This document shows positions 1 to 53,350 of a stretch of DNA of 64,000 nucleotides, one piece after another. The stretch covers positions 186,001 to 250,000 of the forward strand of contig JAUFOQ010000002.1 of assembly GCA_040285855.1 (NCBI GenBank), written 5' to 3'. The first letter of the stretch is position 1, and every line of letters starts with the position of its first letter. The notes below the pieces were generated by a model that saw only the letters and a program-made list of their open reading frames with translations, made no database searches and had not been told where the DNA came from. This DNA is from Eukaryota sp. GEM-RC1 (Eukaryota). The position numbers and the translations under genes were made by a program.

Positions 1-105
1 TGACCTGGTTCTGCTCACTTTTGCTATAATCTTGACAGAACTGACTATAATCTTGACAACTTCTTTTCACTTTCCCTCAAATATCTCTCTTTATTATTCA
101 TAAAT

Positions 106-1732
106 ATGAGCTTAAATCAAAACATCGTCTTAAATGAGGAGGACCCTACAATCAATATAACAACACCAGTTCCAAATAATTTGATGTCTTTTGAATCCTA
201 TGAAGATGCTGTTAACTCTCTGCAAAAGTGGGCCGGTGATAAAGGTTTCTCTCTCCGTACCGATGGTGGTAATGAAGGCCGTGGACGTGTTTATCTTTTA
301 TGCTTTTGTGCTTCTGTCCATAGACCTGGTCGTGTTAATGAGAACAATGACATTGTTCGACGTCGCTCAAAGACAAGAGTTAGGCAATGTGCTTTTAAGC
401 TGTACCTTAAACTTCAACGACGAACTTTGGAAGGTTGAATCAAGAAGTATAGTACACAACCATATGCTAGCAGCTGATAAAACTTCTACTTCTGAGTTGT
501 ATCACTCAATCAATTGGAAAGACTCATGTGTGCCCCGCTATCCACCACTCCGAAAAAAATCCTGTTGCAACTCAGGAAAGAAGCAAGAACCAATAATGAA
601 GCAGTTTTATTAACAGCCAAAGATATTTCAAATATCCGCTATAAAACGAAATTGGAATCACAGGAGGGCCAAGGGCCAATTGACAGTTTGATTGAAAAAA
701 CGCGGACGGGTACATCTTTCGAGTTAAGTCTGATGCCGAAAACCGACTTGAAGCCCTGTTTATTGTAAACCGGGAGGTACTGCCGATTGCCAGAAGATTT
801 CGGTATGTGTTCTGTCTTGACAGTACTTATAAGACAAATACATTTGGTATGCCAATGTTTCATATGGTTGGTTTTACGTGTTTAAATTCATCGTTCAGTG
901 CTGCCTGTGTCTTTATGGCGAAAGAAACTGAAGAATACTATCTTTGGACCTTGGAACAATTTAAAGATGTAATTAACATTAATCCAGGAGTTTTTCTTAC
1001 AGATAAAGAAAAGGCATTGAATAATGCTGTCAGGCAAGTGTTTCCTACATCCGGTCACGTTTTATGCTTGTTCCATATCGTTCAAAATTTAATCCAAATT
1101 AAGAACGCTAAAGGAATTTCTGATCCAGCATGGAAAATATTTATGGAACATTTTTACTCCGTAATTCAAAGTGAAGCATTCGAAGAATTTTGTTGGAATT
1201 TGGACGTGATGACAGGCAAATATGAAAATGACCGAGAATGTGGTGATGCCTTCATCTATTTAATTAACAATTGGTTCGATATGAAGGAAAGTTTCTGTTA
1301 TTACAATATTGATCAATTCACTCACTTTGAAACTTACACGAACAATCGAGCCGAGTCCGCCCACAATGCACTAAAATCCGGAGATCGAATGTACAAAAGA
1401 GACTTGGAGAGTGCTATGGAAAATGTTATGGCTACTATGGAGCATCAAGTAATCGACTTAAGAAGAAACATTGATGTTGATAAGCAGAGAGTCGACCGAG
1501 AACTGATGAACACCCCTTTATTTGTGAACGTAATTCGACACGTGTCATCTTTTGCTTTGTTGAAGGTTTTACAAATTATTGCTTTTAGCCAAACGAATCA
1601 TGTGGATTCAGTATATTCAGGTAGAACTGAGAGAATAACTGGAATTCCATGTATTCACAGCAGTAAAAGAACACAAAGACTTTCCAAAGATATGTTTCAT
1701 CGACAGTGGTGGTTAGATGAGGAAGCAGAACC
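106..1732 (+). pseudogene. MULE transposase 5' part: FAR1/WRKY-like DNA-binding domain plus MULE DDE domain, frameshifted (copy 1)
   Basis: C...CAFKLYL...W...HNH zinc motif across frames; LDSTYKTN, FLTDKEKAL, LCLFHI, TNNRAESAH MULE motifs; GIPCIH (degenerate SWIM). Confidence 0.9.
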
Positions 1733-1866
1733 GAGTTTGACTATAATCTTGACAAAAATGACTAAAATCTTGACAAAAATGACTATGCTCTTGACAAAAA
1801 TGACTAGAATCTTGACAGCTTCTCATTCTTGCTAGAATCTTGACAGAACTGACTAGATTCTTGACA
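1733..1866 (+). repeat. ~21-bp subterminal tandem repeats of the MULE end (TGACTAwAATCTTGACAAAAA)
   Basis: About six degenerate copies; two more at the left end (16-60); present in every unit. Confidence 0.85.
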
Positions 1867-2017
1867 AGTTGCTTTCTGATCCATTTTAGTGATATCATCA
1901 TTTCTTCGTCACTGCCTCACTGTCTCCCTCTTTATGTTCTGGACCTGGGAGTTTCTGCTTTCGTTATCACATATACTTTAGTAGTTCAAATTCTACATTC
2001 TACAGTTCACTATTGCT

Positions 2018-2309
2018 CTAATGCTCACAATCACAATCTTTCTTGAATTTCTTACATCTTTGACAATGACTTCTGCTATCATGTCCTTCCTGGCGACACA
2101 CTCTACATTTCCTTGCGGTTTTCTTCTTTTGAGTTCTCATCACCCTACCATTCTCCTCATGAACTTTTGGACCTTCGTATCGATGGGCAGACCTTGCTAA
2201 ACCCACATTGGCAGCCTCTTCTAACCGTACCTTGTCTGCTGCTGACTCAGTAGACCGCCATTGATTGAACAGTTCTTCAACAGGATTAGAAATTTGACCT
2301 GGTTCTGCT
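2018..2309 (-). pseudogene. Inverted 3' part of the same MULE transposase, with C-terminal CCHC zinc knuckle
   Basis: Minus strand reads AEPGQISNPVEELF...RKCRVCRQEGHDSRSHC, continuing the plus-strand ...WWLDEEAEP. Confidence 0.85.
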
Positions 2310-2399
2310 CACTTTTGCTATAATCTTGACAGAACTGACTATAATCTTGACAACTTCTTTTCACTTTCCCTCAAATATCTCTCTTTATTATTCATAAAT

Positions 2400-4026
2400 A
2401 TGAGCTTAAATCAAAACATCGTCTTAAATGAGGAGGACCCTACAATCAATCCAACAACACCAGTTCCAAATAATTTGATGTCTTTTGAATCCTATGAAGA
2501 TGCTGTTAACTCTCTGCAAAAGTGGGCCGGTGATAAAGGTTTCTCTCTCCGTACCGATGGTGGTAATGAAGGCCGTGGACGTGTTTATCTTTTATGCTCC
2601 TGTGCTTCTGTCCATAGACCTGGTCGTGTTAATGAGAACAATGACATTGTTCGACGTCGCTCAAAGACAAGAGTTAGGCAATGTGCTTTTAAGCTGTACC
2701 TTAAACTTCAACGACGAACTTTGGAAGGTTGAATCAAGAAGTATAGTACACAAACATATGCTAGCAGCTGATAAAACTTCTACTTCTGAGTTGTATCACT
2801 CAATCAATTGGAAAGACTCATGTGTGCCCCGCTATCCACCACTCCGAAAAAAATCCTGTTGCAACTCAGGAAAGAAGCAAGAACCAATAATGAAGCAGTT
2901 TTATTAACAGCCAAAGATATTTCAAATATCCGCTATAAAACGAAATTGGAATCACAGGAGGGCCGAGGGCCAATTGACAGTTTGATTGAAAAAACGCGGA
3001 CGGGTACATCTTTCGAGTTAAGTCTGATGCCGAAAACCGACTTGAAGCCCTGTTTATTGTAAACCGGGAGGTACTGCCGATTGCCAGAAGATTTCGGTAT
3101 GTGTTCTGTCTTGACAGTACTTATAAGACAAATACATTTGGTATGCCAATGTTTCATATGGTTGGTTTTACGTGTTTAAATTCATCGTTCAGTGCTGCCT
3201 GTGTCTTTATGGCGAAAGAAACTGAAGAATACTATCTTTGGACCTTGGAACAATTTAAAGATGTAATTAACATTAATCCAGGAGTTTTTCTTACAGATAA
3301 AGAAAAGGCATTGAATAATGCTGTCAGGCAAGTGTTTCCTACATCCGGTCACGTTTTATGCTTGTTCCATATCGTTCAAAATTTAATCCAAATTAAGAAC
3401 GCTAAAGGAATTTCTGATCCAGCATGGAAAATATTTATGGAACATTTTTACTCCGTAATTCAAAGTGAAGCATTAGAAGAATTTTGTTGGAATTTGGACG
3501 TGATGACAGGCAAATATGAAAATGACCGAGAATGTGGTGATGCCTTCATCTATTTAATTAACAATTGGTTCGATATGAAGGAAAGTTTCTGTTATTACAA
3601 TATTGATCAATTCACTCACTTTGAAACTTACACGAACAATCGAGCCGAGTCCGCCCACAATGCACTAAAATCCGGAGATCGAATGTACAAAAGAGACTTG
3701 GAGAGTGCTATGGAAAATGTTATGGCTACTATGGAGCATCAAGTAATCGACTTAAGAAGAAACATTGATGTTGATAAGCAGAGAGTCGACCGAGAACTGA
3801 TGAACACCCCTTTATTTGTGAACGTAATTCGACACGTGTCATCTTTTGCTTTGTTGAAGGTTTTACAAATTATTGCTTTTAGCCAAACGAATCATGTGGA
3901 TTCAGTATATTCAGGTAGAACTGAGAGAATAACTGGAATTCCATGTATTCACAGCAGTAAAAGAACACAAAGACTTTCCAAAGATATGTTTCATCGACAG
4001 TGGTGGTTAGATGAGGAAGCAGAACC
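2400..4026 (+). pseudogene. MULE transposase copy 2 (variant B)
   Basis: As copy 1 with diagnostic changes I>P, F>S, N>K, Q>R, F>L. Confidence 0.9.
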
Positions 4027-4693
4027 GAGTTTGACTATAATCTTGACAAAAATGACTAAAATCTTGACAAAAATGACTATGCTCTTGACAAAAATGACTA
4101 GAATCTTGACAGCTTCTCATTCTTGCTAGAATCTTGACAGAACTGACTAGATTCTTGACAAGTTGCTTTCTGATCCATTTTAGTGATATCATCATTTCTT
4201 CGTCACTGCCTCACTGTCTCCCTCTTTATGTTCTGGACCTGGGAGTTTCTGCTTTCGTTATCACATATACTTTAGTAGTTCAAATTCTACATTCTACAGT
4301 TCACTATTGCTCTAATGCTCACAATCACAATTTTTCTTGAATTTCTTACATCTTTGACAATGACTTCTGCTATCATGTCCTTCCTGGCGACACACTCTAC
4401 ATTTCCTTGCGGTTTTCTTCTTTTGAGTTCTCATCACCCTACCATTCTCCTCATGAACTTTTGGACCTTCGTATCGATGGGCAGACCTTGCTAAACCCAC
4501 ATTGGCAGCCTCTTCTAACCGTACCTTGTCTGCTGCTGACTCAGTAGACCGCCATTGATTGAACAGTTCTTCAACAGGATTAGAAATTTGACCTGGTTCT
4601 GCTCACTTTTGCTATAATCTTGACAGAACTGACTATAATCTTGACAACTTCTTTTCACTTTCCCTCAAATATCTCTCTTTATTATTCATAAAT

Positions 4694-6321
4694 ATGAGCT
4701 TAAATCAAAACATCGTCTTAAATGAGGAGGACCCTACAATCAATATAACAACACCAGTTCCAAATAATTTGATGTCTTTTGAATCCTATGAAGATGCTGT
4801 TAACTCTCTGCAAAAGTGGGCCGGTGATAAAGGTTTCTCTCTCCGTACCGATGGTGGTAATGAAGGCCGTGGACGTGTTTATCTTTTATGCTTTTTGTGC
4901 TTCTGTCCATAGACCTGGTCGTGTTAATGAGAACAATGACATTGTTCGACGTCGCTCAAAGACAAGAGTTAGGCAATGTGCTTTTAAGCTGTACCTTAAA
5001 CTTCAACGACGAACTTTGGAAGGTTGAATCAAGAAGTATAGTACACAACCATATGCTAGCAGCTGATAAAACTTCTACTTCTGAGTTGTATCACTCAATC
5101 AATTGGAAAGACTCATGTGTGCCCCGCTATCCACCACTCCGAAAAAAATCCTGTTGCAACTCAGGAAAGAAGCAAGAACCAATAATGAAGCAGTTTTATT
5201 AACAGCCAAAGATATTTCAAATATCCGCTATAAAACGAAATTGGAATCACAGGAGGGCCAAGGGCCAATTGACAGTTTGATTGAAAAAACGCGGACGGGT
5301 ACATCTTTCGAGTTAAGTCTGATGCCGAAAACCGACTTGAAGCCCTGTTTATTGTAAACCGGGAGGTACTGCCGATTGCCAGAAGATTTCGGTATGTGTT
5401 CTGTCTTGACAGTACTTATAAGACAAATACATTTGGTATGCCAATGTTTCATATGGTTGGTTTTACGTGTTTAAATTCATCGTTCAGTGCTGCCTGTGTC
5501 TTTATGGCGAAAGAAACTGAAGAATACTATCTTTGGACCTTGGAACAATTTAAAGATGTAATTAACATTAATCCAGGAGTTTTTCTTACAGATAAAGAAA
5601 AGGCATTGAATAATGCTGTCAGGCAAGTGTTTCCTACATCCGGTCACGTTTTATGCTTGTTCCATATCGTTCAAAATTTAATCCAAATTAAGAACGCTAA
5701 AGGAATTTCTGATCCAGCATGGAAAATATTTATGGAACATTTTTACTCCGTAATTCAAAGTGAAGCATTCGAAGAATTTTGTTGGAATTTGGACGTGATG
5801 ACAGGCAAATATGAAAATGACCGAGAATGTGGTGATGCCTTCATCTATTTAATTAACAATTGGTTCGATATGAAGGAAAGTTTCTGTTATTACAATATTG
5901 ATCAATTCACTCACTTTGAAACTTACACGAACAATCGAGCCGAGTCCGCCCACAATGCACTAAAATCCGGAGATCGAATGTACAAAAGAGACTTGGAGAG
6001 TGCTATGGAAAATGTTATGGCTACTATGGAGCATCAAGTAATCGACTTAAGAAGAAACATTGATGTTGATAAGCAGAGAGTCGACCGAGAACTGATGAAC
6101 ACCCCTTTATTTGTGAACGTAATTCGACACGTGTCATCTTTTGCTTTGTTGAAGGTTTTACAAATTATTGCTTTTAGCCAAACGAATCATGTGGATTCAG
6201 TATATTCAGGTAGAACTGAGAGAATAACTGGAATTCCATGTATTCACAGCAGTAAAAGAACACAAAGACTTTCCAAAGATATGTTTCATCGACAGTGGTG
6301 GTTAGATGAGGAAGCAGAACC
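4694..6321 (+). pseudogene. MULE transposase copy 3 (variant A)
   Basis: As copy 1, with one extra T near 4892. Confidence 0.9.
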
Positions 6322-6988
6322 GAGTTTGACTATAATCTTGACAAAAATGACTAAAATCTTGACAAAAATGACTATGCTCTTGACAAAAATGACTAGAATC
6401 TTGACAGCTTCTCATTCTTGCTAGAATCTTGACAGAACTGACTAGATTCTTGACAAGTTGCTTTCTGATCCATTTTAGTGATATCATCATTTCTTCGTCA
6501 CTGCCTCACTGTCTCCCTCTTTATGTTCTGGACCTGGGAGTTTCTGCTTTCGTTATCACATATACTTTAGTAGTTCAAATTCTACATTCTACAGTTCACT
6601 ATTGCTCTAATGCTCACAATCACAATCTTTCTTGAATTTCTTACATCTTTGACAATGACTTCTGCTATCATGTCCTTCCTGGCGACACACTCTACATTTC
6701 CTTGCGGTTTTCTTCTTTTGAGTTCTCATCACCCTACCATTCTCCTCATGAACTTTTGGACCTTCGTATCGATGGGCAGACCTTGCTAAACCCACATTGG
6801 CAGCCTCTTCTAACCGTACCTTGTCTGCTGCTGACTCAGTAGACCGCCATTGATTGAACAGTTCTTCAACAGGATTAGAAATTTGACCTGGTTCTGCTCA
6901 CTTTTGCTATAATCTTGACAGAACTGACTATAATCTTGACAACTTCTTTTCACTTTCCCTCAAATATCTCTCTTTATTATTCATAAAT

Positions 6989-8542
6989 ATGAGCTTAAAT
7001 CAAAACATCGTCTTAAATGAGGAGGACCCTACAATCAATCCAACAACACCAGTTCCAAATAATTTGATGTCTTTTGAATCCTATGAAGATGCTGTTAACT
7101 CTCTGCAAAAGTGGGCCGGTGATAAAGGTTTCTCTCTCCGTACCGATGGTGGTAATGAAGGCCGTGGACGTGTTTATCTTTTATGCTCCTGTGCTTCTGT
7201 CCATAGACCTGGTCGTGTTAATGAGAACAATGACATTGTTCGACGTCGCTCAAAGACAAGAGTTAGGCAATGTGCTTTTAAGCTGTACCTTAAACTTCAA
7301 CGACGAACTTTGGAAGGTTGAATCAAGAAGTATAGTACACAAACATATGCTAGCAGCTGATAAAACTTCTACTTCTGAGTTGTATCACTCAATCAATTGG
7401 AAAGACTCATGTGTGCCCCGCTATCCACCACTCCGAAAAAAATCCTGTTGCAACTCAGGAAAGAAGCAAGAACCAATAATGAAGCAGTTTTATTAACAGC
7501 CAAAGATATTTCAAATATCCGCTATAAAACGAAATTGGAATCACAGGAGGGCCGAGGGCCAATTGACAGTTTGATTGAAAAAACGCGGACGGGTACATCT
7601 TTCGAGTTAAGTCTGATGCCGAAAACCGACTTGAAGCCCTGTTTATTGTAAACCGGGAGGTACTGCCGATTGCCAGAAGATTTCGGTATGTGTTCTGTCT
7701 TGACAGTACTTATAAGACAAATACATTTGGTATGCCAATGTTTCATATGGTTGGTTTTACGTGTTTAAATTCATCGTTCAGTGCTGCCTGTGTCTTTATG
7801 GCGAAAGAAACTGAAGAATACTATCTTTGGACCTTGGAACAATTTAAAGATGTAATTAACATTAATCCAGGAGTTTTTCTTACAGATAAAGAAAAGGCAT
7901 TGAATAATGCTGTCAGGCAAGTGTTTCCTACATCCGGTCACGTTTTATGCTTGTTCCATATCGTTCAAAATTTAATCCAAATTAAGAACGCTAAAGGAAT
8001 TTCTGATCCAGCATGGAAAATATTTATGGAACATTTTTACTCCGTAATTCAAAGTGAAGCATTAGAAGAATTTTGTTGGAATTTGGACGTGATGACAGGC
8101 AAATATGAAAATGACCGAGAATGTGGTGATGCCTTCATCTATTTAATTAACAATTGGTTCGATATGAAGGAAAGTTTCTGTTATTACAATATTGATCAAT
8201 TCACTCACTTTGAAACTTACACGAACAATCGAGCCGAGTCCGCCCACAATGCACTAAAATCCGGAGATCGAATGTACAAAAGAGACTTGGAGAGTGCTAT
8301 GGAAAATGTTATGGCTACTATGGAGCATCAAGTAATCGACTTAAGAAGAAACATTGATGTTGATAAGCAGAGAGTCGACCGAGAACTGATGAACACCCCT
8401 TTATTTGTGAACGTAATTCGACACGTGTCATCTTTTGCTTTGTTGAAGGTTTTACAAATTATTGCTTTTAGCCAAACGAATCATGTGGATTCAGTATATT
8501 CAGGTAGAACTGAGAGAATAACTGGAATTCCATGTATTCACA
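6989..8542 (+). pseudogene. MULE transposase copy 4 (variant B), truncated at the fold-back
   Basis: Identity to the unit ends at GIPCIH (8542). Confidence 0.9.
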
Positions 8543-8544
8543 TT

Positions 8545-9790
8545 GCTCGATTGTTCGTGTAAGTTTCAAAGTGAGTGAATTGATCAATATTGTAATAACA
8601 GAAACTTTCCTTCATATCGAACCAATTGTTAATTAAATAGATGAAGGCATCACCACATTCTCGGTCATTTTCATATTTGCCTGTCATCACGTCCAAATTC
8701 CAACAAAATTCTTCTAATGCTTCACTTTGAATTACGGAGTAAAAATGTTCCATAAATATTTTCCATGCTGGATCAGAAATTCCTTTAGCGTTCTTAATTT
8801 GGATTAAATTTTGAACGATATGGAACAAGCATAAAACGTGACCGGATGTAGGAAACACTTGCCTGACAGCATTATTCAATGCCTTTTCTTTATCTGTAAG
8901 AAAAACTCCTGGATTAATGTTAATTACATCTTTAAATTGTTCCAAGGTCCAAAGATAGTATTCTTCAGTTTCTTTCGCCATAAAGACACAGGCAGCACTG
9001 AACGATGAATTTAAACACGTAAAACCAACCATATGAAACATTGGCATACCAAATGTATTTGTCTTATAAGTACTGTCAAGACAGAACACATACCGAAATC
9101 TTCTGGCAATCGGCAGTACCTCCCGGTTTACAATAAACAGGGCTTCAAGTCGGTTTTCGGCATCAGACTTAACTCGAAAGATGTACCCGTCCGCGTTTTT
9201 TCAATCAAACTGTCAATTGGCCCTCGGCCCTCCTGTGATTCCAATTTCGTTTTATAGCGGATATTTGAAATATCTTTGGCTGTTAATAAAACTGCTTCAT
9301 TATTGGTTCTTGCTTCTTTCCTGAGTTGCAACAGGATTTTTTTCGGAGTGGTGGATAGCGGGGCACACATGAGTCTTTCCAATTGATTGAGTGATACAAC
9401 TCAGAAGTAGAAGTTTTATCAGCTGCTAGCATATGTTTGTGTACTATACTTCTTGATTCAACCTTCCAAAGTTCGTCGTTGAAGTTTAAGGTACAGCTTA
9501 AAAGCACATTGCCTAACTCTTGTCTTTGAGCGACGTCGAACAATGTCATTGTTCTCATTAACACGACCAGGTCTATGGACAGAAGCACAGGAGCATAAAA
9601 GATAAACACGTCCACGGCCTTCATTACCACCATCGGTACGGAGAGAGAAACCTTTATCACCGGCCCACTTTTGCAGAGAGTTAACAGCATCTTCATAGGA
9701 TTCAAAAGACATCAAATTATTTGGAACTGGTGTTGTTGGATTGATTGTAGGGTCCTCCTCATTTAAGACGATGTTTTGATTTAAGCTCAT
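8545..9790 (-). pseudogene. MULE transposase inverted copy (variant B), truncated
   Basis: Reverse complement of copy 4 up to YTNNRA. Confidence 0.9.
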
Positions 9791-10456
9791 ATTTATGAAT
9801 AATAAAGAGAGATATTTGAGGGAAAGTGAAAAGAAGTTGTCAAGATTATAGTCAGTTCTGTCAAGATTATAGCAAAAGTGAGCAGAACCAGGTCAAATTT
9901 CTAATCCTGTTGAAGAACTGTTCAATCAATGGCGGTCTACTGAGTCAGCAGCAGACAAGGTACGGTTAGAAGAGGCTGCCAATGTGGGTTTAGCAAGGTC
10001 TGCCCATCGATACGAAGGTCCAAAAGTTCATGAGGAGAATGGTAGGGTGATGAGAACTCAAAAGAAGAAAACCGCAAGGAAATGTAGAGTGTGTCGCCAG
10101 GAAGGACATGATAGCAGAAGTCATTGTCAAAGATGTAAGAAATTCAAGAAAGATTGTGATTGTGAGCATTAGAGCAATAGTGAACTGTAGAATGTAGAAT
10201 TTGAACTACTAAAGTATATGTGATAACGAAAGCAGAAACTCCCAGGTCCAGAACATAAAGAGGGAGACAGTGAGGCAGTGACGAAGAAATGATGATATCA
10301 CTAAAATGGATCAGAAAGCAACTTGTCAAGAATCTAGTCAGTTCTGTCAAGATTCTAGCAAGAATGAGAAGCTGTCAAGATTCTAGTCATTTTGTCAAGA
10401 GCATAGTCATTTTTGTCAAGATTTTAGTCATTTTTGTCAAGATTATAGTCAAACTC

Positions 10457-12085
10457 GGTTCTGCTTCCTCATCTAACCACCACTGTCGATGAAACATATC
10501 TTTGGAAAGTCTTTGTGTTCTTTTACTGCTGTGAATACATGGAATTCCAGTTATTCTCTCAGTTCTACCTGAATATACTGAATCCACATGATTCGTTTGG
10601 CTAAAAGCAATAATTTGTAAAACCTTCAACAAAGCAAAAGATGACACGTGTCGAATTACGTTCACAAATAAAGGGGTGTTCATCAGTTCTCGGTCGACTC
10701 TCTGCTTATCAACATCAATGTTTCTTCTTAAGTCGATTACTTGATGCTCCATAGTAGCCATAACATTTTCCATAGCACTCTCCAAGTCTCTTTTGTACAT
10801 TCGATCTCCGGATTTTAGTGCATTGTGGGCGGACTCGGCTCGATTGTTCGTGTAAGTTTCAAAGTGAGTGAATTGATCAATATTGTAATAACAGAAACTT
10901 TCCTTCATATCGAACCAATTGTTAATTAAATAGATGAAGGCATCACCACATTCTCGGTCATTTTCATATTTGCCTGTCATCACGTCCAAATTCCAACAAA
11001 ATTCTTCGAATGCTTCACTTTGAATTACGGAGTAAAAATGTTCCATAAATATTTTCCATGCTGGATCAGAAATTCCTTTAGCGTTCTTAATTTGGATTAA
11101 ATTTTGAACGATATGGAACAAGCATAAAACGTGACCGGATGTAGGAAACACTTGCCTGACAGCATTATTCAATGCCTTTTCTTTATCTGTAAGAAAAACT
11201 CCTGGATTAATGTTAATTACATCTTTAAATTGTTCCAAGGTCCAAAGATAGTATTCTTCAGTTTCTTTCGCCATAAAGACACAGGCAGCACTGAACGATG
11301 AATTTAAACACGTAAAACCAACCATATGAAACATTGGCATACCAAATGTATTTGTCTTATAAGTACTGTCAAGACAGAACACATACCGAAATCTTCTGGC
11401 AATCGGCAGTACCTCCCGGTTTACAATAAACAGGGCTTCAAGTCGGTTTTCGGCATCAGACTTAACTCGAAAGATGTACCCGTCCGCGTTTTTTTCAATC
11501 AAACTGTCAATTGGCCCTTGGCCCTCCTGTGATTCCAATTTCGTTTTATAGCGGATATTTGAAATATCTTTGGCTGTTAATAAAACTGCTTCATTATTGG
11601 TTCTTGCTTCTTTCCTGAGTTGCAACAGGATTTTTTTCGGAGTGGTGGATAGCGGGGCACACATGAGTCTTTCCAATTGATTGAGTGATACAACTCAGAA
11701 GTAGAAGTTTTATCAGCTGCTAGCATATGGTTGTGTACTATACTTCTTGATTCAACCTTCCAAAGTTCGTCGTTGAAGTTTAAGGTACAGCTTAAAAGCA
11801 CATTGCCTAACTCTTGTCTTTGAGCGACGTCGAACAATGTCATTGTTCTCATTAACACGACCAGGTCTATGGACAGAAGCACAAAAAGCATAAAAGATAA
11901 ACACGTCCACGGCCTTCATTACCACCATCGGTACGGAGAGAGAAACCTTTATCACCGGCCCACTTTTGCAGAGAGTTAACAGCATCTTCATAGGATTCAA
12001 AAGACATCAAATTATTTGGAACTGGTGTTGTTATATTGATTGTAGGGTCCTCCTCATTTAAGACGATGTTTTGATTTAAGCTCAT
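10457..12085 (-). pseudogene. MULE transposase inverted copy (variant A)
   Basis: 429-aa ORF here is open across an A-run that is frameshifted in the other copies. Confidence 0.9.
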
Positions 12086-12965
12086 ATTTATGAATAATAA
12101 AGAGAGATATTTGAGGGAAAGTGAAAAGAAGTTGTCAAGATTATAGTCAGTTCTGTCAAGATTATAGCAAAAGTGAGCAGAACCAGGTCAAATTTCTAAT
12201 CCTGTTGAAGAACTGTTCAATCAATGGCGGTCTACTGAGTCAGCAGCAGACAAGGTACGGTTAGAAGAGGCTGCCAATGTGGGTTTAGCAAGGTCTGCCC
12301 ATCGATACGAAGGTCCAAAAGTTCATGAGGAGAATGGTAGGGTGATGAGAACTCAAAAGAAGAAAACCGCAAGGAAATGTAGAGTGTGTCGCCAGGAAGG
12401 ACATGATAGCAGAAGTCATTGTCAAAGATGTAAGAAATTCAAGAAAGATTGTGATTGTGAGCATTAGAGCAATAGTGAACTGTAGAATGTAGAATTTGAA
12501 CTACTAAAGTATATGTGATAACGAAAGCAGAAACTCCCAGGTCCAGAACATAAAGAGGGAGACAGTGAGGCAGTGACGAAGAAATGATGATATCACTAAA
12601 ATGGATCAGAAAGCAACTTGTCAAGAATCTAGTCAGTTCTGTCAAGATTCTAGCAAGAATGAGAAGCTGTCAAGATTCTAGTCATTTTTGTCAAGAGCAT
12701 AGTCATTTTTGTCAAGATTTTAGTCATTTTTGTCAAGATTATAGTCAAACTCTGTACTGGTATGTCGTTGTACGATCACTTCTGACTTACGTAATGTTAA
12801 ATCACCATTCAATATCAAGACAAATATTTATTTGGATCCTTTCTCAGCAGAAAACAATTCCAAAAAAACAACACTTCCAAGCAAACGTGAATGAAGATTT
12901 GGCAAAAAAACACATCATGTTTCAACAATTTAGATAGTGTGTATTAGCATTTCATCTTGGATGAA

Positions 12966-14717: not shown

Positions 14718-16717
14718 CAGGGGTCGGGAAAAAATATTTAAATAAAATAATGTATTTTTATATTGCCCAATAAATATTTTTTCAAAATATACTCTAAAAA
14801 TAAATATTGCAATAAGTAGAAAATTGCAATAAATATTTAAATATTTTATATATAACAGTATCAAAATTTTCCCCTTTTAGGGTCTTTTAGAAATAATTTT
14901 TCTTACATCGTCTTCGTTCCAAAGATCTCTGTTGTACAACAGATACAACTGCTGTTCTAAACTGCTATCTGACAGAGAACATCGGTAATCTCCTAATGTA
15001 TGCTTAGCCCTACTAAACAATCGTTCTAATACATTAGAAGTACCTGGAATCCACTTCAAATCAATGTACTTACTGGTTGGCTTGTCGGGTTGGCCAATCG
15101 AATCAAGTGCACCTTCGAAATTGGTAAGATCTGACTCTTCACTTTCGTCATTGTCGCCATCCTCTTCTTCAATATCGGTTTCTTCCACATCCTCTTTAAG
15201 AAAGGACGCAACACTGGTTTGTTCAGCTGTTGAGAGTCTGTCTTCATGACCATTTAGTATTTTGATGATAGCAGATTCAAACACAGGGCTGTGTTGTTTA
15301 CTGCTAGGATAGCTTGTGTATTGATTCATGGTGGGAAATCTTTGATGAAAAAGTTCCAGTGAAGCGTGAATTTGGTGTAAAGGAATGCTTTCCCGCTGAA
15401 GATAAAGCGTGAGCACATGAAAAGTTTCATATTGTTTCATCAATGTTTTCAAACGTTGCTGTTCACAAAAAGAAGGGACAAATTGAGTGACACTTTCGTC
15501 AAAGAGATCAAAGGACTTTCTATCAATGTATTGAAAAAATCTCTTCAACATAGCAATGGTAGACCACCATCTTGTAGAATTCCGCCTCAAAGGTCTCAGG
15601 GAAGTGTTGGTTTTCAGAACGAGAGTGTTTTTGATATGTCTCAATTGAGTGAAAAGATCATCAAGATCTTTCAAAATGGGATCTAAATCACCAGAAAATT
15701 TCTTGACTTCATTTGCAAATCTATGCGAAGCACAACCAATCAAAGGTATACACAGTATGTCTGCAAGACGGGTGTTGGTAGCACAGCTGTCTCCAACGAG
15801 AAACAGTAAGTCATCTACAGTTTTGTCATACGCTGACAACACAATAGCGATATTTTCTTTGTATTGGTCGGCACCAAATACAACGTTGGATGATTTAAAT
15901 GGACTGCTCTCGTCATAAACCTCGTCCAGTTCGAACGGAAACAGAGATAGTAAAACTGGTCTACTCTTCTGCGGAAAGCACGCAAACATCCCAACGAACT
16001 CTGTGGTTCCTGTTGGGTGCTTCCATCCGTCAAACATCAGTCCAAATTCCTCAGGCAACAACTGGGCTACCTTAGCACAAACTTCGGTGTACAAGAGTCT
16101 CATGTACTTCACCAATGTCTTAACATCAATTGGGTCAAGATTGCAGTTTTTTTGAATCATTGGATCTTGAACAAATGTAAATGCCATTTGATTCTCAATA
16201 CACCATTCCAGCCATCGGAAAATGTTGTGCGGCTTGTCTGGCAAAACAGGTGTTAAGAATCGACTGATGGTTGCGTTGTTTTTGGCGGCGATCATTTCTT
16301 CGTTGAAGTTTGGGTGGCATTTGTGTACGTGTGGCATAAAATTGGAATTATCCAGTTCTTGGCTGAATATACAGGGGGAATCATGTTGGGACAAAGACGA
16401 CATTGCCAAGCTTCTTTGTGTTCAGGGCAGTTGTTTGGGGTTGGAGTAACCTTCCGAAAGTAGAATTTGGCCGTATCCTTAGGCTTGAGAGACATAGCAA
16501 GAAGAGAATAGTTGAAATGAACTTCACATCTTCTGTTATGTATCATTTTCTTCATCTCAACAAATCATTTATTTTTACTCCAAAAAATAAATATTGCAAT
16601 AAATACAGTATTGCAAAAGATTAAAATAAATATTTTTTATCTACGTGTACAAAAAATAAATATTTTTCATGAAAAATATTTAAATATTGCAATATAAATA
16701 TTTTTTCCCGACCCCTG
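14718..16717 (-). mobile_element. hAT DNA transposon
   Basis: TIR CAGGGGTCGGGAAAAAA; perfect 8-bp TSD AATGATGT (14710-14717, 16718-16725). Confidence 0.93.
14877..16495 (-). CDS. hAT-family transposase (one frameshift near the 5' end)
   Basis: WQCRLC...H..H zinc finger split by frameshift; FDGW, VGDSCATN, GCASHRF, TRW, GTSNVLERLFS. Confidence 0.88.
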
Positions 16718-18781: not shown

Positions 18782-20118
<1,337 letters not shown>

Positions 20119-30736: not shown

Positions 30737-31165
30737 TTACTCAGCTTCCCCTGAGGAACTAAACTTGGTAACAGCCTTGGTACCTTCAGAAACAGCATGC
30801 TTTGAAAGTTCACCAGGTAACAATAATCTAACAGCAGTTTGAATCTCCCTTGAAGACAAAGTGTTTCTCTTGTTGATTCTAGCAAGACGAGAAGCTTCAG
30901 TGGCAATACGTTCAAAAATATCATTGACAAAAGAGTTCATGATTCCCATAGCCTTGGTTGAGATACCAGTATCGGGGTGAACTTGACGCAATACACGATA
31001 AATGTAGGTAGCCCAGGTCTCCTTACGGGCCTTCTTACGCTTGACAACAGTAGGAGCTGCTCCTTCAGCTACAGCTTTGGCAGGAGCCTTGGAAGGGGCT
31101 TTAGCGGGAACTCCCTTGATGGACTTGGTAGACTTGGTAGACTTTACAGATTTCTTTCCGGGCAT
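30737..31165 (-). CDS. H2B: Histone H2B
   Basis: [34 protein letters not shown] at 31165. Confidence 0.98.
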
Positions 31166-31316
31166 TGAGGATAGAACTTGTTGTTTGAAGAATTGAATTG
31201 TGAGAAAAGGATTGCGTTCAAGTGAACCGCACCACCACGAGAATCTCTGCCTCACCGAAATTGTCGTGTTCATTTGTAACACCAATTTCTACAGATTCAT
31301 TTTCTCATCTCATTTA

Positions 31317-33309: not shown

Positions 33310-35851
33310 TATAGATGGGAGCCGGCTCAAATTTTGCTCACGGCTCAGCTGCAGGTACTAGTTAGCCGGCTATGGCTTCCAACATAGTTTAGCCGGCTCA
33401 AGCCGGCTTTAGCCGGCTCAGCCGCAATGAGTTTGATGTAGATTTATTGTTTAACTGTTTTGTCAAAGCATATGCTTTCAGTGTCTTCTCTTTGATAGAT
33501 TTGTTTTATGTGGTTCATTATTGTTATACATAAATTCTACCCTATTCTTCAATTATCGCTACTCTACTCATCGTCTTTCTGATCTTCTTCGTTCAAAAGC
33601 CAGCACCGCAAACACATTAATGCAGTTACCGTGGTGTCATCTAACCGGGAACGCTTCTTAGTTATTACGTTACCAGTTTGTGAAAACAATCGTTCACTAC
33701 TAACGGAGGTCGCTTGAACAGCTAACATATCCCTTGCAAATTTGCTCATCAGAGGAAAGTTTTCAGAGTTTACTCTCCACCAATCTAAGGGATTGTCATT
33801 CTCGGCCGAAAACATAGAAAGATACGTATGTAACTCCTTTTCAACTGATAGATCCTCAGAGTCAGAACGTTCATCTGTGGTACTGTTCTGGGACACAGAT
33901 TCTTTGATGATCTTAAGCTTAGCTCTGAAGGATTTGGTCTTCTTTCTCACTTCTCTTCCTCCATTTTCACTGCTATACTCCTCCTGAAGGCGTGTTAATA
34001 GCAGATGTCTAACTTCCTGCAAGTTCACATGCGTTGGCCACATTAAAGGACTTAACTTGATAGACGGATCCATCACAGTTGCAATCTTGGTCGTGTCATT
34101 CAGTACATTGGCATCGTACTTAGCAATGATTTTCTTCATAAAGATGCTACAAAAACCGGTTACTTTGTTTGGATATACCTCACTCAATTCCTGCATCTTT
34201 TTGTGCAGGTCTGACTTCCGGCGAATATTCTCCAATTCTGCCAAATTGCTGTTTAGTACTCCTTGGCCAAATTTGGCAATTTCAACATCTAGCACTTCTT
34301 TTATGGTTTCCCAATACAGAATTGTATGGGAAATTGTCACGTCAGATGCAGATGAAAGATCGGTTGTGATATCATAGAATGGTTTCAACAGTTTCAACAG
34401 CTTTGACAATGTTACTGTTTCAAAGTCAGATAATATTAGTTCAGTAATTTGCTCATTTTGTAAGAAGTAATTAATGATAGCCAACTGGTCGTGATACGTT
34501 TTTAGCATGAGATATGTACTATTCCAGCGAGTAGGAACGTCAGAGGGAATTCTTTGAAATTTTTGCCTGTGTCTTTGGCGCAAGTTTTGAGCTTTTCATT
34601 CAATGAACTGGACATATGGGTTTTAGACGTCAATTTTTGAATCTTAAGTATACTGGCTTGTATAAAGGGCAATCCATTCTGGACCATGATGTTTAAAACA
34701 TGAGCAAAGCATCGCTGATTTTCAGACCTTTCGTTCAGTAAATCAACTGCATTCACAATGTTCCCAGCATTGTCAGTTGTCCATGATTGTGTCTTGGTTT
34801 GAAGCCCATAATCAGCAATAATGGTGTTCAGTTTCGCTGAAATCATTTCTGCGGTATGCGGAAAAGGCAAGTAAGAGATATCGAGAGTGCATGTAAGTAG
34901 CTCATATGCGTCATTAATGTAGTGGCCTACGACAGAAATATAGGGTGTCCCATTATTTGAAGTCCACAAATCGGACGTAAGAGACATCTTCGAAGTGTTA
35001 AGTGCCAGCGTTTCTTGAAGCAATAACTTTTTTTGTGCGAATAAATTCAATATCGTATCCGTAATCGTTTTTCTGCACGGTAGACTCACAGACGGTTCGT
35101 AAAACTGAAGGATCTTCAAGAGAGTTGGAGATTCAATGTACGACAATGGATGTTGATCAGCAAGAATATGATCAACAATGAGAGGAATTACTCCACTTGG
35201 ATCTTTTTTGAAGGAGCGTTCTGTTGGCTGAAGATATTCAGTTATTTGTCGACTCTTTTTAAGGGGAGGAACTTCAGATTCATAGAGCTTATTATGGTGC
35301 TTTCTCACATGAGAACGCAAGTTACCTGTGGCTGTCGATGACTTGTAGCGCTTAGAGACACAAAATTTACATTCGATGGTTTCAGTACGCACTTCTATAT
35401 CACCATTTGGGAGTTTCTTGGCCGCCTGTTGGAAGAAAGGAGCAATATCTTTGGGAAGAGGCTTGAGGAGTTCTAAGGAAACTATGTCGTTGGAAGAGTT
35501 GCTTTGAGATACTTCTATAGGTTCTTCATTGTCAGAGACCAAAGTAATGTCCATTGCAAATTGATGTGAAGAATGTAAACTGCTGATTATTGTGCTAATG
35601 TTGATAAAGATTATTTTTATAGAAATTCTTTAGTTTTAATATTTAATGTCCTGCAATGTTATGTTTGTATCAATTCATGAACGAATTATAAATATTTCAG
35701 CTGTCAAAAATGAAATTTCAATAATCGGCTTGAGCCGGCTAAAAGTTATTTGAGCCAGCCGGCTTGCAGCTGGAAATATTTCCAATTTGGGACAGCCGGC
35801 TGGCTCGGCTAGCCAGCTGAGCCGGCTAAATTTAGCCGGCTCCCATCTCTA
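33310..35851 (-). mobile_element. hAT (Ac-like) DNA transposon
   Basis: TIR TAkAGATGGGAGCCGGCT; AGCCGGCT subterminal repeats; perfect TSD GTGAAAAG. Confidence 0.95.
33564..35554 (-). CDS. hAT transposase with BED finger (frameshift ~34570)
   Basis: CKFC...NLRSHVRKHH; SDLWTS, TTDNAGN, CFAHVLN, TRWNST, ATSVSSERLFS. Confidence 0.93.
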
Positions 35852-38313: not shown

Positions 38314-38370
38314 AACGGAGTGAATCAATACTCAGTTTAAATTTTAAACTGAGTATTGATTCACTCCGTT
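38314..38370. repeat. Perfect 57-bp palindrome
   Basis: 28-bp arms AACGGAGTGAATCAATACTCAGTTTAAA with a 1-nt centre. Confidence 0.95.
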
Positions 38371-39402: not shown

Positions 39403-40863
39403 CAGTGTTCGAAAATTTTCCACCCGGACGCCACCCGGGTGGTTTTCTATTCCACCCGGGTGGTCACCGGGTGGTCTAAAAATGAGAGACACTTTTTCAT
39501 GTTCTCCTCGATACACTTGTACTCATACATGCATCCGTATAACTCTCATCACTCACCCTAAAACTCCTTTCATAAAAGCAAAATACTTTATTCTAATCTA
39601 AACATTGGAACCATTCATCTAACATCTCCTCAGTCATTATGATCACGAACTTGTAGGTTCTGATGGAAACAAGGGTCAAAGAGTTCCATATCGTCATCAT
39701 CTTCGTCATCATTGACTTCAGCTTGTACTTGTCTCACAGGAACGTCTTCTACTTCTTCTTCTTCCTCTACCTCCATCTCTTCATACATTTCCACAATCTC
39801 TTCCGCCATCCATTGTGGGAAGTCCTCACGTGCAACTAAAAGCTTCTTTCGGAGTTTAAGATTGCAATAGACAAAAACGAGAGACTTCAGCAATTTTGTA
39901 CTCATTCTATTTCTTCTTTTGTTCATGATAAATCCAAATGCTGGCCAGTTTCTTTCAGCAGAAGATGCAGATGAAATTTGTCCCAACAACTGCGATGCTA
40001 CTGTTTTAAGTGGACTATCAGTTCCATGTAGCTTCCACCACTCATAGGCTGGTTGCTTCTGGGCTTCTTCCCAGATAAATGGATCATCGTAGTAAGGAGC
40101 CTTTTGGATCATATAATTTTGAAAGTCGGTATTGGCCTTTTCATAATCTTCTTTGCTGAGAACAGAACTAAGATATTCCCTCATAATCCTTAGGTAGTTC
40201 ACTAATCTTTCGCCTGAGTACCCCGCTAGTTTGGATTGGTTTTCAGGGTCCAACAAATGAGCAGTAATATGTGCTCGGGTTAGAACAGCATCCACTCGTT
40301 TCATTTCTATCGTCAATTGAAATCCAAGTCATGGTTCTGAGCAAGTCCAAAGTATTGTTGTACGCAGCGGCAGTTCTGTTCAGCAGTTTCCCAATATATG
40401 GAGTATCTTGATCAGAAAAAAGGATCAAATCGGCAAATGGTTTGAACAAATGAGAAATTTGACCTATTTTGTCCCAAAACGAGTACTGGCCAATACAAGG
40501 CAGAGACTCTATGTCTTTAACATGATGTAAAATTTCATGCATCTGCATCTTTTTTTCATGTGGCAACTTTCCAATCATTGCCAGAACATCGCTATGAAGA
40601 AGAGTAGTAATTACTGCATTCTTACACTCAATTATCCGTTGAAGCAATAAAAACCGAGTATAAAATCTGGTTTCTCCTGGAAAAAGTAATTTTTTTCTGA
40701 AATCTGATTAAAAACATCACGTGAGGTCTTGTGATTTCGAATGAATTTGGCAATTTTTTTTTTGCAATGTCAACGAGATTTTTGATGGTGGGAATACGTC
40801 CTTCTACATTGGTTAAAGCAAGATCGAAAGTATGAGCAGCACAAGGAAGCCAGAAAACTTTTC
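39403..40863 (-). mobile_element. 5'-truncated hAT transposon (3' TIR plus C-terminal half of the transposase)
   Basis: TIR CAGTGTTCGAAAATTTTCCACCCGG at 39403; VFWLPCAAHTFDL, PGETRFY, AHLLDP, SSASSAERNW in shifting frames. Confidence 0.88.
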
Positions 40864-44810: not shown

Positions 44811-47391
44811 CAGGGATTCCTAAAGTAGTCAACTTTTTCAGAATTAAAGTAAAGTAGTGTACACTACTTTACTTTATACTTTACTTTACTTTACACTTTA
44901 ACATACTTTAAGAATGTATAAAGTGATCCTGCATCTTACAATTTTGTTCTTCAATTATCTCTTCAGTTTTATGACATCTCTTCCTTCCGAGGAATGGAAA
45001 ACTCTCTGTGAAGTAGTGGAAGTAGTCTCTAGCACATGTGCCCGGTTCCGTTGTAAGCTGTGTGACGTCGTTCATTCTGTCAACAGGTGGACAATGGAAG
45101 GACATTTCTTACGTGACCTACCTAAAAAGCGTCCCATCTCGCTCTGTTCCAACATTGGACCTCCTGGTTCACAAAATGCGCTCAATGTTGCTGCTCTTAG
45201 AAGATACGTAGAGACTCATTCCCGGGGGCGTAAGCGGAAGGCTTCTCAACAGTCTACACCTGAGACGAAACGAAATGACCTACAGCCCTTTCTTTCTCCC
45301 GTTCCTGAACCTCCTGTCGATGAATCATCTACTGTGGTTGTCATCTCTGAGTCTGATCCAAATACATCATCTCTTTCTCCGACTTCTGCTGTCACGGCTA
45401 TTCCCCAGCCAACAATTGAAACTACTATTCCCATTGCAACTTCCCCCCAAGATCTGTAACTTAAAGCAGACAAAACTAAAGAAATTTTATCAAAAAAGTA
45501 GCAACCAAAATCTAGATGAAGTTGTTGCTCTTTATGCTCTAGGAGAAGGATTACCACTCACTAAAGTTTCTAAATCGACAAGGCTGCAAAATGTTATTGA
45601 AGGAGCTGTCGAGCATTATAAGCTGTACAACGAAGTTTTTGAATTACCATCTTATCAGAAATTGATGGACACAGTGGCTCCCAAAATTATTAAAAATGTT
45701 AAAAGACAAAGTACAGTCGACATTGCTACCCTTTGCACTGGTTGGACTTTAGTTATAGATGGATCAGAGATAAATTATAACAGTTTAATTAATTTCTGCC
45801 TTGTTGGTCCAAACAGGACAATTTTTTACAAATGCATTGAATGCAATTATCAGTCAAAGACTGCAGATTTCCTTAAAAATCTTTTTGTTTCAGTTCTCAA
45901 CGAAATTGGTCCTGAATATGTAAATTTTGTCATTACCGATGGAGCAGCAAATTATTTAAATGCAGCAACAGCTGTCCAAGATGTTTTCCCAGCCATCACA
46001 AGGATGCGGTGTAGCATTCACACACTCAATTTGTTTTTAAAGGACATTTGCTCGCCGACTTCAAATTACGTTGTGCCTTCAATTCGAAGTATTGTCGAAA
46101 AAGCCAACAAAGTAGTTGATTTTGTTGTTAACAAGCCTTTCATCCGGAAGCTTTTGAAAAAGTCAACCCAGAAGAAATTAAAACGAATTTGTTTGACACG
46201 ATTTTACACTCAATTCATCGTCATTGAAAGAGTACACGAATTGTACCAAAATGTCAATAACACTCTCACGAATGAAGACTATATCACCTGGCTTGCTAAG
46301 CCACAACAAGCTAGAATTAGAGAAGTATCTGCTGAGGTCAAGCTAATAGTTGCCGATGATGATTTTTGGGTTCAGGTAAAATTATTAATTGACTTCTTAC
46401 GACCAATCATTGACTTAATGCTGAAAATGGACAGTCTAACGCCAATTATGGGAAAATTGTACCGATACCTCGAATTGGAAGATCTGAGGTTATCGACAGC
46501 TCAGTTATCCATCCTAGAACCAGGTGAAATTGATAGCATAAGAAGTCGATTTCAGGTTCGAAAGAACCAATTAGCACATCCTTGTGTTAAAGCTGCATTC
46601 TGTTTGGATCCTGAAAACAGAAACATTGTCAGACTGAGTCGATACCTTGACTGTAGGAACGCACTTTTTGGTCTCATTGAACAACGGTTCGGTGAACGTA
46701 AGAAACCAGATGTTTTGCAACAGTGGAATGAGTACTTAGTTGGAACTGGGGAGTTTGAACATGAAGCAATTTTTCTTAATGCAAGGAAACAATCTGCTCA
46801 TAACTGGTGGTATGCCAATGGAGGGGACCAAGAATTATCTCAATTGGCAGTAAAACTGCTAAGTAGTGTTGCCTCCAATTCAGAAGCTGAAAGAAACTGG
46901 TCTGACTTCAGTGTTGTCTGTACCAAAGAGCGATCCAGACTAACAAGTGAGAAAGCCAGTGACTTTGTGATGATCAAACACAACCTGAAGAGGGGAAAGA
47001 TAATGAGTAGAAAGTTCTTTGACTGGATTGATGAAGAAGTTCTTGGTCCTGAGCTTGACAATTTAGAGGTCACAGATGATGAAGAAGTACAGCCTGTGGT
47101 GGAGGAGATATTGGTTCCTGAGTAATCTGTAGAAGAAGTGAAAACTTGAGTGCTCACCCACTCTTGATATGTATAGTTTAGATTTTGTAGTTTTTGGTGA
47201 GTTTCTACTTTATAAAAGTTGTTTAAATTCCTACTGTCGAAAGGAATAGATGTATACGGGATGGCTGGAGCAACCCTAGCAATCAAGAAAGAAAGTGCTT
47301 AAAGTGCTTAAAGTACTGAAAATATCTTAAAGTAAAGTAAAGTAAAGTAAAGTAAAGTGCTTAAAGTACTTTACTACTTTAAGAATCCCTG
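44811..47391 (+). mobile_element. hAT DNA transposon
   Basis: 19-bp TIR CAGGGATTCyTAAAGTAGT; perfect TSD GTCTACAG; AAAGT subterminal repeats. Confidence 0.95.
44971..47125 (+). CDS. hAT transposase (frameshift ~45445)
   Basis: CKLC...H...C finger; VIDGS, ITDGAANY, CSIHTLNL, TRF, AFCLDP, SNSEAERNWS. Confidence 0.92.
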
Positions 47392-51140: not shown

Positions 51141-53350
51141 ATGATCGATACTGCTAAGTTTATTGCCGAAAACATTCGTCCCTATGATGGTGATGCCTCC
51201 TTTCTTGCTGGTCCAACCCAAAGAACCAAGGAATTGATGATCAGAACTGCTGAAATCCTCCGCGAAGAACTCCAGAAAGGAATCTATGACCTTGACATTG
51301 TCCGTCCAAGTACAATCACCTCCCATGGTCCTGGTTATCTTGACAAGACCAAGGAAACTATTGTAGGATTCCAAGGGGAAGCTCCTCTACAAAGAACGTA
51401 TGACTCTAGTTGACTAACAATAGTATGAAGTGTGCTGGAGGTGTCCGAGTTACTGCAACAGCTTGCAAGTCTTATGGCTACACAATGAACACAGAAACTG
51501 AAAGAGTCTTTACTGAATACGCTAAAACCCACAACGATGGTGTCTTTGACATGTACACTGCTGAAATGCGTGCTGCTCGTAAGTCTGGTATTATCACAGG
51601 TCTTCCTGATGGATACATGCGTGGTCGCATCATTGGAGACTACAGAAGACTTGCTCTCTATGGACTTGACCGCATGATCGCTGAGAAGAAACACGACAAG
51701 GACAATCTCCCCAAGACAATGACCGAAGACAACATGAAACTTCATGAGGAAGTTAGCGAACAGATCAAAGCTCTCAAACAAGTCAGAGTAATGGCCCAAT
51801 CCTACGGTTATGATGTTTCTCAACCTGCTAAGAATTGCCAAGAAGCCATTCAATGGACCTACTTTGGATATCTTGCCGCTATTAAGCAAGCAGACGGTGC
51901 AGCCATGTCTTTTGGACGTCCAGATGCTTTCTTTGATTACTTCATTGAAAGAGATCTTGATGCAGGCACATTTACTGAAGAGCAAGTTCAAGAATTCATT
52001 GATCATTTTGTAATCAAACTTCGTCTTGTTCGTCATCTCAGAACTCCAGAATACAATGATCTGTTTGCTGGTGATCCCACCTGGGTCACGTGTGTGCTCG
52101 GAGGCATAGATCAAAGTGGTCAACACATGGTCACTCGAACCTCGTACCGTATTCTCCAGACTCTCTACAACTTAGGTCCTGCTCCTGAACCAAATCTCAC
52201 TATTCTCTGGTCCCCTAAACTGCCAAAGACTTTCCGTGATTTCTGCTCTCAAGTTTCCATCGACACGTCATCAATCCAATACGAGAACGACGACATGATG
52301 CGTCCTATCTATGGTTCCGATTATGGTATTGCTTGTTGTGTTTCAGGTATGGCTCTCGGAAAACAAATGCAATTCTTTGGTGCTCGATGTAATCTTGCTA
52401 AACTTCTTCTCTACACCTTTAACAATGGAGTGGACGAGGTCACTGAACAACAAGTAGGTCCTCAATTGGGATCCCCTGTTGACGGTGATGTTTTGGACTA
52501 TGACAAGGTCTGGAATTCTCTATCAAAGTACATGGATTGGCTCAGTGAGTTGTACGTTAATACTATGAACATCATCCATTACTCTCATGACAAGTATGCT
52601 TATGAATCATCAATGATGGCTTTCCATGATACTTTTGTTGAAAGACTCATGGCCTTTGGAATTGCTGGACTCTCAGTTGTTGGTGACTCTCTGTCTGCTA
52701 TCAAGTATGCTAAGGTTTATCCAATTAAAAATGAAAAGGGTCTAGTAGTTGACTTTAAAACTGAAGGCGAGTTCCCCTGTTATGGAAATGATGACGACAG
52801 AGTTGATTCAATCGTAGTGTCTCTGTGTCACGAGTTCATTTCCCGTCTTAGAAAGTACCCAACCTATCGAAATTCAACTCACACTCTCTCTATTCTTACC
52901 ATTACTTCTAACGTTGTCTATGGTAAGAAGACTGGTAACACTCCTGATGGTAGAAGAAAGGGCGAACCTTTTGCACCTGGTGCTAATCCTTCTCATAACC
53001 GTGATTCTACAGGAGCTATTGCTTCTTTAAACTCTGTTACCAAGATATCCTATGATGATTGTCGTGATGGAATTTCAAATACGTTTTCTATTCTTCCAAA
53101 TGCTCTTGGTAAGTCCAAAAGTGAGCAAATCTCCAACCTATCTGCCATGCTTGATGGGTATATTCTACAAAAGGGTTTCCACATTAACGTCAATGCCGTT
53201 CGAAGAGAAGTTTTGATTGACGCCATGGAACATCCTGAGAATTATCCCCAGTTAACAATAAGAGTTTCTGGCTATGCTGTCAACTTTAATAGGTTAACTA
53301 GAGCACAACAAGAAGAAGTTTTGGCTAGAACTTTCCATTCTCATATGTAA
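51141..53350 (+). CDS. pflB: Pyruvate formate-lyase, 2 exons (51141-51397, 51424-53350)
   Basis: [23 protein letters not shown] catalytic Cys pair, RVSGYAV glycyl-radical motif. Confidence 0.96.
51398..51423 (+). other. 26-nt spliceosomal intron
   Basis: GTATGA...ACTAAC-AATAG; removal joins the two PFL ORFs in frame ([14 protein letters not shown]). Confidence 0.88.

Follow-up and report, generated by a model that had tools for sequence, protein, structure and literature searches.

A tandem array of internally inverted units

The window analysed here, a stretch of 64,000 nucleotides from Eukaryota sp. GEM-RC1, opens with a tandem array that spans positions 1-12,752 and holds about five unit repeats, or six copies when partial ones are counted. 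The unit is 2,294 bp long and has the order L a X R' b' X', where L and R are the termini of a transposable element, a and b the two parts of its gene, X a 9-mer, and a prime marks inversion. Read in words, a left end and the 5' gene part are followed by the 9-mer, the right end read inward, the inverted 3' gene part and the inverted 9-mer. The features of the array, with coordinates and strand, are these:

7..15, minus: X' (inverted 9-bp target duplication), adjoining the left terminus
16..68, plus: left terminus L, a short imperfect terminal inverted repeat (TIR) with two subterminal repeats (family D1)
106..695, plus: 5' part of the transposase gene, frameshifted
696..1732, plus: MULE DDE domain region (Pfam PF10551), broken at EEAEP
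1724..1732, plus: X (9-bp target duplication), adjoining the inward-read right terminus
1733..1876, minus: right terminus R, inverted; a 21-bp repeat in 3.8 copies is followed by an inner block that shares 84% identity with the left terminus
2018..2300, minus: inverted 3' part of the transposase gene (open reading frame, match to P0008), with a C-terminal zinc-knuckle-like motif
2301..2309, minus: X', the last part of unit 1, which spans 16-2309 and is of haplotype A
2310..4603, plus: unit 2, haplotype B
4604..6898, plus: unit 3, haplotype A
6899..8542, plus: unit 4, partial, haplotype B, up to the orientation flip
8543..8544, no strand: fold junction, 2-nt insert
8545..10456, minus: inverted unit 5, partial (5' part of haplotype B at 8545-9880, X at 9881-9889, then the 3' part and R as far as 10456)
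10457..12752, minus: inverted unit 6, haplotype A, its last base being the right terminus
12753..12761, plus: first 9 bp of the unique flank, a candidate for the genomic target duplication left by a resident element

The first-pass annotation had described the unit as a transposase gene that breaks at EEAEP, where a 9-mer is followed by the right terminus read inward, and as an inverted 3' gene part that ends in the inverted 9-mer, with the left terminus next. Both joints are as described: the 9-mer lies at 1724-1732 and R starts at 1733, and X' at 2301-2309 (also 7-15) is directly followed by the next left terminus at 2310 (also 16). Re-inversion of 1733-2300, which had been said to restore a ~2285-bp element, was carried out by script and gave 2,285 bp, with a single open frame (WWLDEEAEP-GQISNP...CRVCRQEGH) that is continuous over the junction and extends to the stop codon. 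The 5' part, where it ends, overlaps the beginning of the re-inverted 3' part by 9 nt and no more. The duplication of ~9 bp that had been expected of a MULE is likewise exactly 9 bp, inverted, and present at both ends. The sequence of the element is fully kept, the unit being parent plus duplication (2,294 = 2,285 + 9), and both ends are present in the same reading direction, each adjoining one copy of the inverted target duplication. Perfect inverted 9-mers are frequent here (23 inverted pairs of at least 9 nt within 1-2330), and for one specified 9-mer p is ~2.5e-6 per site. The X/X' pair goes beyond chance because it is this pair that adjoins both element termini.

After re-inversion the two ends can be aligned in register over ~44 nt as imperfect TIRs, with subterminal repeats of 21 bp. 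The right end includes a second terminus-like block at 1819-1876, a tandem TIR. Over its 58 nt this block shares 84% identity with the region of the left terminus, which it resembles better than the outer right end does. MULEs carrying multiple TIRs are reportedly dealt with in one published paper (PMC3310237). Within the transposase gene, where the first catalytic motif lies, a further 20 nt (815-834) are 75-80% like the subterminal repeat (D3).

Forward units occupy 1-8,542, with the array extending leftward beyond the window, the orientation flips at 8,542/8,545, and inverted units continue up to 12,752, where the end of the array coincides to the base with a right terminus and unique DNA lies beyond. 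The fold joins unit position 1659 to inverted position 1351 with no flush microhomology. A search for a template of the 2-nt insert returned one 8-mer match, which is within chance. An imperfect palindrome of 24 nt (I3) at 1633-1656 (8516-8539 in unit 4) stops 3 nt short of the fold. It might act as a fragile site, although the fold and the palindrome do not share a centre.

The 5' parts of the copies fall into two haplotypes that differ at 7 sites and are arranged A,B,A,B in the forward units and B,A in the inverted ones. Shifting the array against itself by one unit gives 8 differences and by two units gives 1. In the 3' part we found no haplotype markers consistent across copies, and homopolymer indels distinguish the copies. 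Of five changed codons, haplotype B agrees with the named relatives at three and haplotype A at one, and neither agrees at the fifth. The changes of haplotype A include dinucleotide substitutions at CC in two places (157-158, to AT; 305-306, to TT), which may be damage-related or uncorrected errors.

Elsewhere in the window there are further DNA-transposase-like frames at 14877-16421 (minus), 33564-35629 (minus), 39630-40328 (minus) and 45212-47125 (plus). Two transposase-like frames that were scanned gave hAT dimerisation or DUF659 matches, the first below the curated cut-off. By their motifs, frames at 61383-63482 (minus) look like the integrase and RNase H of an LTR retrotransposon, and those at 51410-53350 (plus), 18982-20118 (plus), 30737-31288 (minus) and 58160-59389 (minus) resemble pyruvate formate-lyase, beta-tubulin, histone H2B and a kinesin motor, respectively. 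The latter four frames fit an anaerobic microbial eukaryote. Near-perfect palindromes lie at 38314-38370 (57 nt) and 60875-60916 (42 nt).

The transposase and its colinear relatives

The identification of the element as Mutator-like, put forward in the first-pass annotation, is borne out by a match of the frame 696-1733 to the Pfam MULE domain PF10551 (E 4.2e-27, 94.9 bits against a cut-off of 27.6). By its DDE domain, its ends and the length of its duplication, the element is assigned to the MULE (Mutator) superfamily. The D, D, CxxH and E motifs were located at 813, 993, 1062 and 1341, and we take them to be the functional motifs of the transposase. DDE, (C/D)xxH and W features are named for the Muta1 transposase (PMC5499845; here and below, PMC3952818, PMC5225508, PMC5499845, PMC11316075, PMC12312487, PMC10462705 and 10.1101/158386 are cited for those portions of their text that were accessible). 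In a homologue search, 5,058 cluster representatives passed E 0.001, and the best homologues beyond the near-identical ones have 26-40% identity. None of 1,196 candidate homologues of 607-2000 aa passed, which is weak evidence. The three 5' fragments and the 3' fragment had no Pfam match (4 of 7 proteins without any). The strict CxxCxxxGHxxxxC pattern is absent from the 3' part in the window, where the last Cys falls one residue further on, and is present in 25 of 76 long distant homologues. Metagenome scans confirmed none of 33 pattern matches for P0008 and returned no exact match to the right-end motif.

Measured against P0011, all six copies have frameshifts in the 5' gene part near 418 and near 494, and a stop codon lies at 436-438. 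A further frameshift at the A-run near 690-695, seen in five of the six, may be a homopolymer error. With these frameshifts and the break at the 9-mer, the predicted transposase is not intact and the element is non-autonomous.

The near-identical named proteins belong to Eukaryota sp. GEM-RC1, an organism that PMC11316075 appears to treat as a free-living metamonad (as Skoliomonas sp. GEMRC, a name that we matched to it ourselves). All six named non-junction proteins that span the break site (P0002, P0006, P0008, P0012, P0013 and P0014) are colinear. Because these relatives read through the break, we regard the colinear order as that of the native parent. The re-inverted frame aligns to P0002 and P0008 at ~96% identity over 386-388 aa without gaps (388 aa for P0008), and the 3' part matches residues 294-388 of P0008 at 97.9%. 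A colinear parent, as the first-pass annotation would require, thus exists at the level of the family; the exact AEP-bearing parent was not found among the six colinear proteins, all of which have EES or EQS at the break site where the array has AEP. Two of the nine lineage-private residues fall within this 3-codon site (p ~0.002).

Another protein, P0005, has the same junction as the array, the residues of haplotype B and a shorter tail that is absent from the window. It is recorded under two accessions that are 413 apart on one contig. If accession numbering follows gene order, the rearranged unit would also lie at a distant locus, and the numbering does follow gene order for the pair P0005 and P0008 (99 and 99). 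Inspected by eye, the stretch that would need to be skipped contains no GT, and P0005 as a spliced model of the gene in the window was rejected.

Routes to the array

Symbolic models of the joints were drawn up for an inversion circle, a deletion circle, same-orientation nesting, inverted nesting, circle integration and alternating nesting. The modelled inversion circle yields exactly the two joints observed, and if such a circle recombines on each side with a resident copy, the linear map is identical to that of five-fold alternating nesting. A single inverted nesting contains both observed joints and, in addition, a colinear joint. Deletion circles and same-orientation nesting were rejected, as the joints they predict differ from those observed. 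No colinear a-X-b joint occurs within the window, and the 12.75 kb of the array hold only two joint types. The centre of the modelled map is an intact element, of which ~1,022 bp are missing here.

The pair of inverted self-target junctions is present in the array, and from it we infer a route. We tentatively favour the reading in which a self-insertion circle, copied back into a resident chromosomal copy, built the array, because only circle joints are present, because autointegration of Sleeping Beauty has been reported to be mainly intramolecular and to give inverted products in which the two ends and the target duplications are retained (PMC3952818), and because copying from two sides of a gap would explain the fold. 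On this reading, transposase would first have excised the element, and it was likely supplied in trans because the gene is frameshifted in all six copies. Each 3' end would then have attacked the opposite strand at the internal 9-mer, producing a 2,294-bp inversion circle with the junctions described above. The circle would have been captured at a resident copy by recombination or gap repair, with the right end and flank of the resident surviving at 12,752. Since both ends read inward the same way round the circle, tracts copied from the two sides of the gap would face each other and would need end-joining, which could have left the central flip with its 2-nt insert. The last step would have been duplication of an A-B dimer in one piece, either within the cell or during assembly.

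The suggestion that the unit is a self-insertion product stands as far as the inverted self-target joints, both ends, the 9-bp duplication and the absence of loss are concerned. The nesting models, however, give the same joints, and this, together with the lack of AEP in all six relatives, limits the support for a circle. The further suggestion that it was multimerised falls short if a plain multimer of one circle is meant, as this leaves the alternating haplotypes, the central flip and the precise end at the genomic flank unexplained. One homogeneous circle is insufficient because two haplotypes alternate in phase across six copies, and this strict alternation calls for dimer-level duplication under circle or nesting alike, in the cell or by the assembler. 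A rolling-circle concatemer of one identical monomer was rejected on the two haplotypes, the orientation flip and the end exactly at a terminus.

A route without a circle ranks not far behind, though we somewhat doubt it: a second copy, for instance on a sister chromatid, would insert inverted into the resident at the 9-mer, recombination between inverted repeats would flip the middle, unequal exchange would expand the unit, and the palindrome centre of ~1 kb would be deleted. The single inverted nesting with which it begins supplies both observed joints, its two source copies would account for haplotypes A and B as easily as a circle would, and the missing ~1,022 bp become the spacer of a long inverted repeat. 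Dimers of hobo are moreover described as expanding by unequal exchange (10.1101/158386). Yet the immediate product would retain the colinear joint that the window lacks, and the route needs at least three further steps, with the strict alternation still requiring dimer-level duplication. We consider it very unlikely that copies inserted serially, each inverted into the internal 9-mer of its predecessor like a Russian doll, the 9-mer acting as a preferred, orientation-specific target. The alternating nesting model does reproduce the left arm, the right arm and the central flip; the flank 9-mer and X' agree at 6 of 9 positions (p ~0.015, for one post hoc comparison); and the clustering of private residues in the site fits a mutated target. 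Serial insertion nevertheless requires four or more insertions at one base and predicts near-equal arms, whereas the left arm exceeds the right by two units or more. In addition, matches of 6/9 or better to the flank 9-mer occur at 54 of 4,554 sites within the element, and Muta1 has little or no target preference (PMC5225508). The AEP change and the likeness of the flank 9-mer hint at a target preference that might make the site a hotspot. A combined history, in which the site mutated into a preferred, orientation-specific target and the resulting inversion circle was rescued by gap repair from both ends, amplified and carried to a second locus, seems improbable to us.

The private residues invite another explanation, namely that the 9-mer came from outside, as the flanking duplication of an ordinary insertion moved inside by microhomology-guided repair that overwrote a similar site at both joints. 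This would explain EES or EQS in all six relatives without a coincidence of p ~0.002, and the family site would be a 7/9 match to the 9-mer if single-base changes are assumed (a figure inferred from protein only). It demands, however, a pair of reciprocal joints that are exactly in register and have each been converted in full, an outcome that strand transfer by a transposase achieves in one step, and we give it little credence. Technical origins have to be weighed as well. For the organism of the named proteins, PMC11316075 describes nanopore ligation libraries corrected with short reads, and the word 'amplification' does not occur in its main text. Foldback reads are a known nanopore artefact that affects ~0.55-0.6% of genomic reads (PMC12870357), and at such rates the flip could be technical; the homopolymer indels between copies point the same way. 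That the entire arrangement, terminal joints included, arose in sequencing or assembly is nonetheless highly improbable: at each terminus the joint is exact to the base, as is the inverted 9-bp duplication, and the same junction recurs in P0005. The flip is asymmetric by 308 nt, above the 200-bp default in PMC12870357, and the left arm runs on through additional units, whereas a foldback would lead back to the flanking DNA. Self-comparison revealed no second long inverted duplication in the remaining 51 kb of the window. Copy number and the central fold may by themselves be assembly artefacts; that one or the other alone is technical strikes us as unlikely, though to be reckoned with, and would be compatible with every other reading.

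Significance and comparison with known systems

The chemistry by which the unit would form is already known, and autointegration has been demonstrated with engineered elements (PMC3952818), where it is treated as a dead end. If the self-insertion reading is true, a natural Mutator unit with base-exact inversion joints, fixed in the assembly of a eukaryote and repeated there, would show that self-insertion products can persist and seed arrays. This touches the question of how arrays arise from DNA transposons without internal repeats, for which rolling-circle copying and double insertion are the contenders (10.1101/158386). Should the combined hotspot and rescue history be true, it would provide a route from autointegration to satellite-like DNA; if the route without a circle is right, the array would be a tidy case of inverted nesting, of modest interest. 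Our literature search, which covered few subscription journals, found no natural MULE autointegration circles or arrays of them.

As in VANDAL21 of Arabidopsis, Mutator-family ends are here associated with inversions and, on the favoured reading, circular DNA in a eukaryote, but the VANDAL21 events involve two neighbouring elements with their spacer, or circles of whole elements (PMC12312487, PMC10462705). In the accessible text of these two sources we found no self-insertion joint with an inverted duplication. The array shares with Muta1 of Aedes aegypti a MULE DDE transposase and TIRs with subterminal tandem repeats, and free 3'-OH ends of Muta1 can join target DNA (PMC5225508, PMC5499845). 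Target duplications are 8-9 bp for Muta1 (PMC5225508) and 8-11 bp for MULEs (PMC6446971), and the 9 bp of the array fall inside both ranges. Muta1, however, is intact, its TIRs are symmetrical and 145 bp long, and it shows little target preference, whereas the array copy is frameshifted and has unequal ends; 'intramolecular' and 'circle' each occur 0 times in PMC5499845.

Like hobo and Bari1, the element is a DNA transposon in a tandem array with a target duplication between units. The arrays of hobo and Bari1 are attributed to double insertion or rolling-circle copying, and their units are whole, colinear and head to tail (10.1101/158386), whereas each unit described here contains an internal inversion, and what has been duplicated belongs to the element itself. 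The closest likeness is to the inversion products of Sleeping Beauty and piggyBac, in which the ends are kept, the orientation is changed, the target is duplicated and a single product results from attack on the opposite strand (PMC3952818). The array unit would also work like the intramolecular inversion products of Tn10, as cited in the same source. The Sleeping Beauty and piggyBac products are dead ends recovered from plasmid assays (PMC3952818), whereas the case described here, known from sequence alone, is a natural MULE that is repeated, lies in two orientations and is anchored at a genomic flank.
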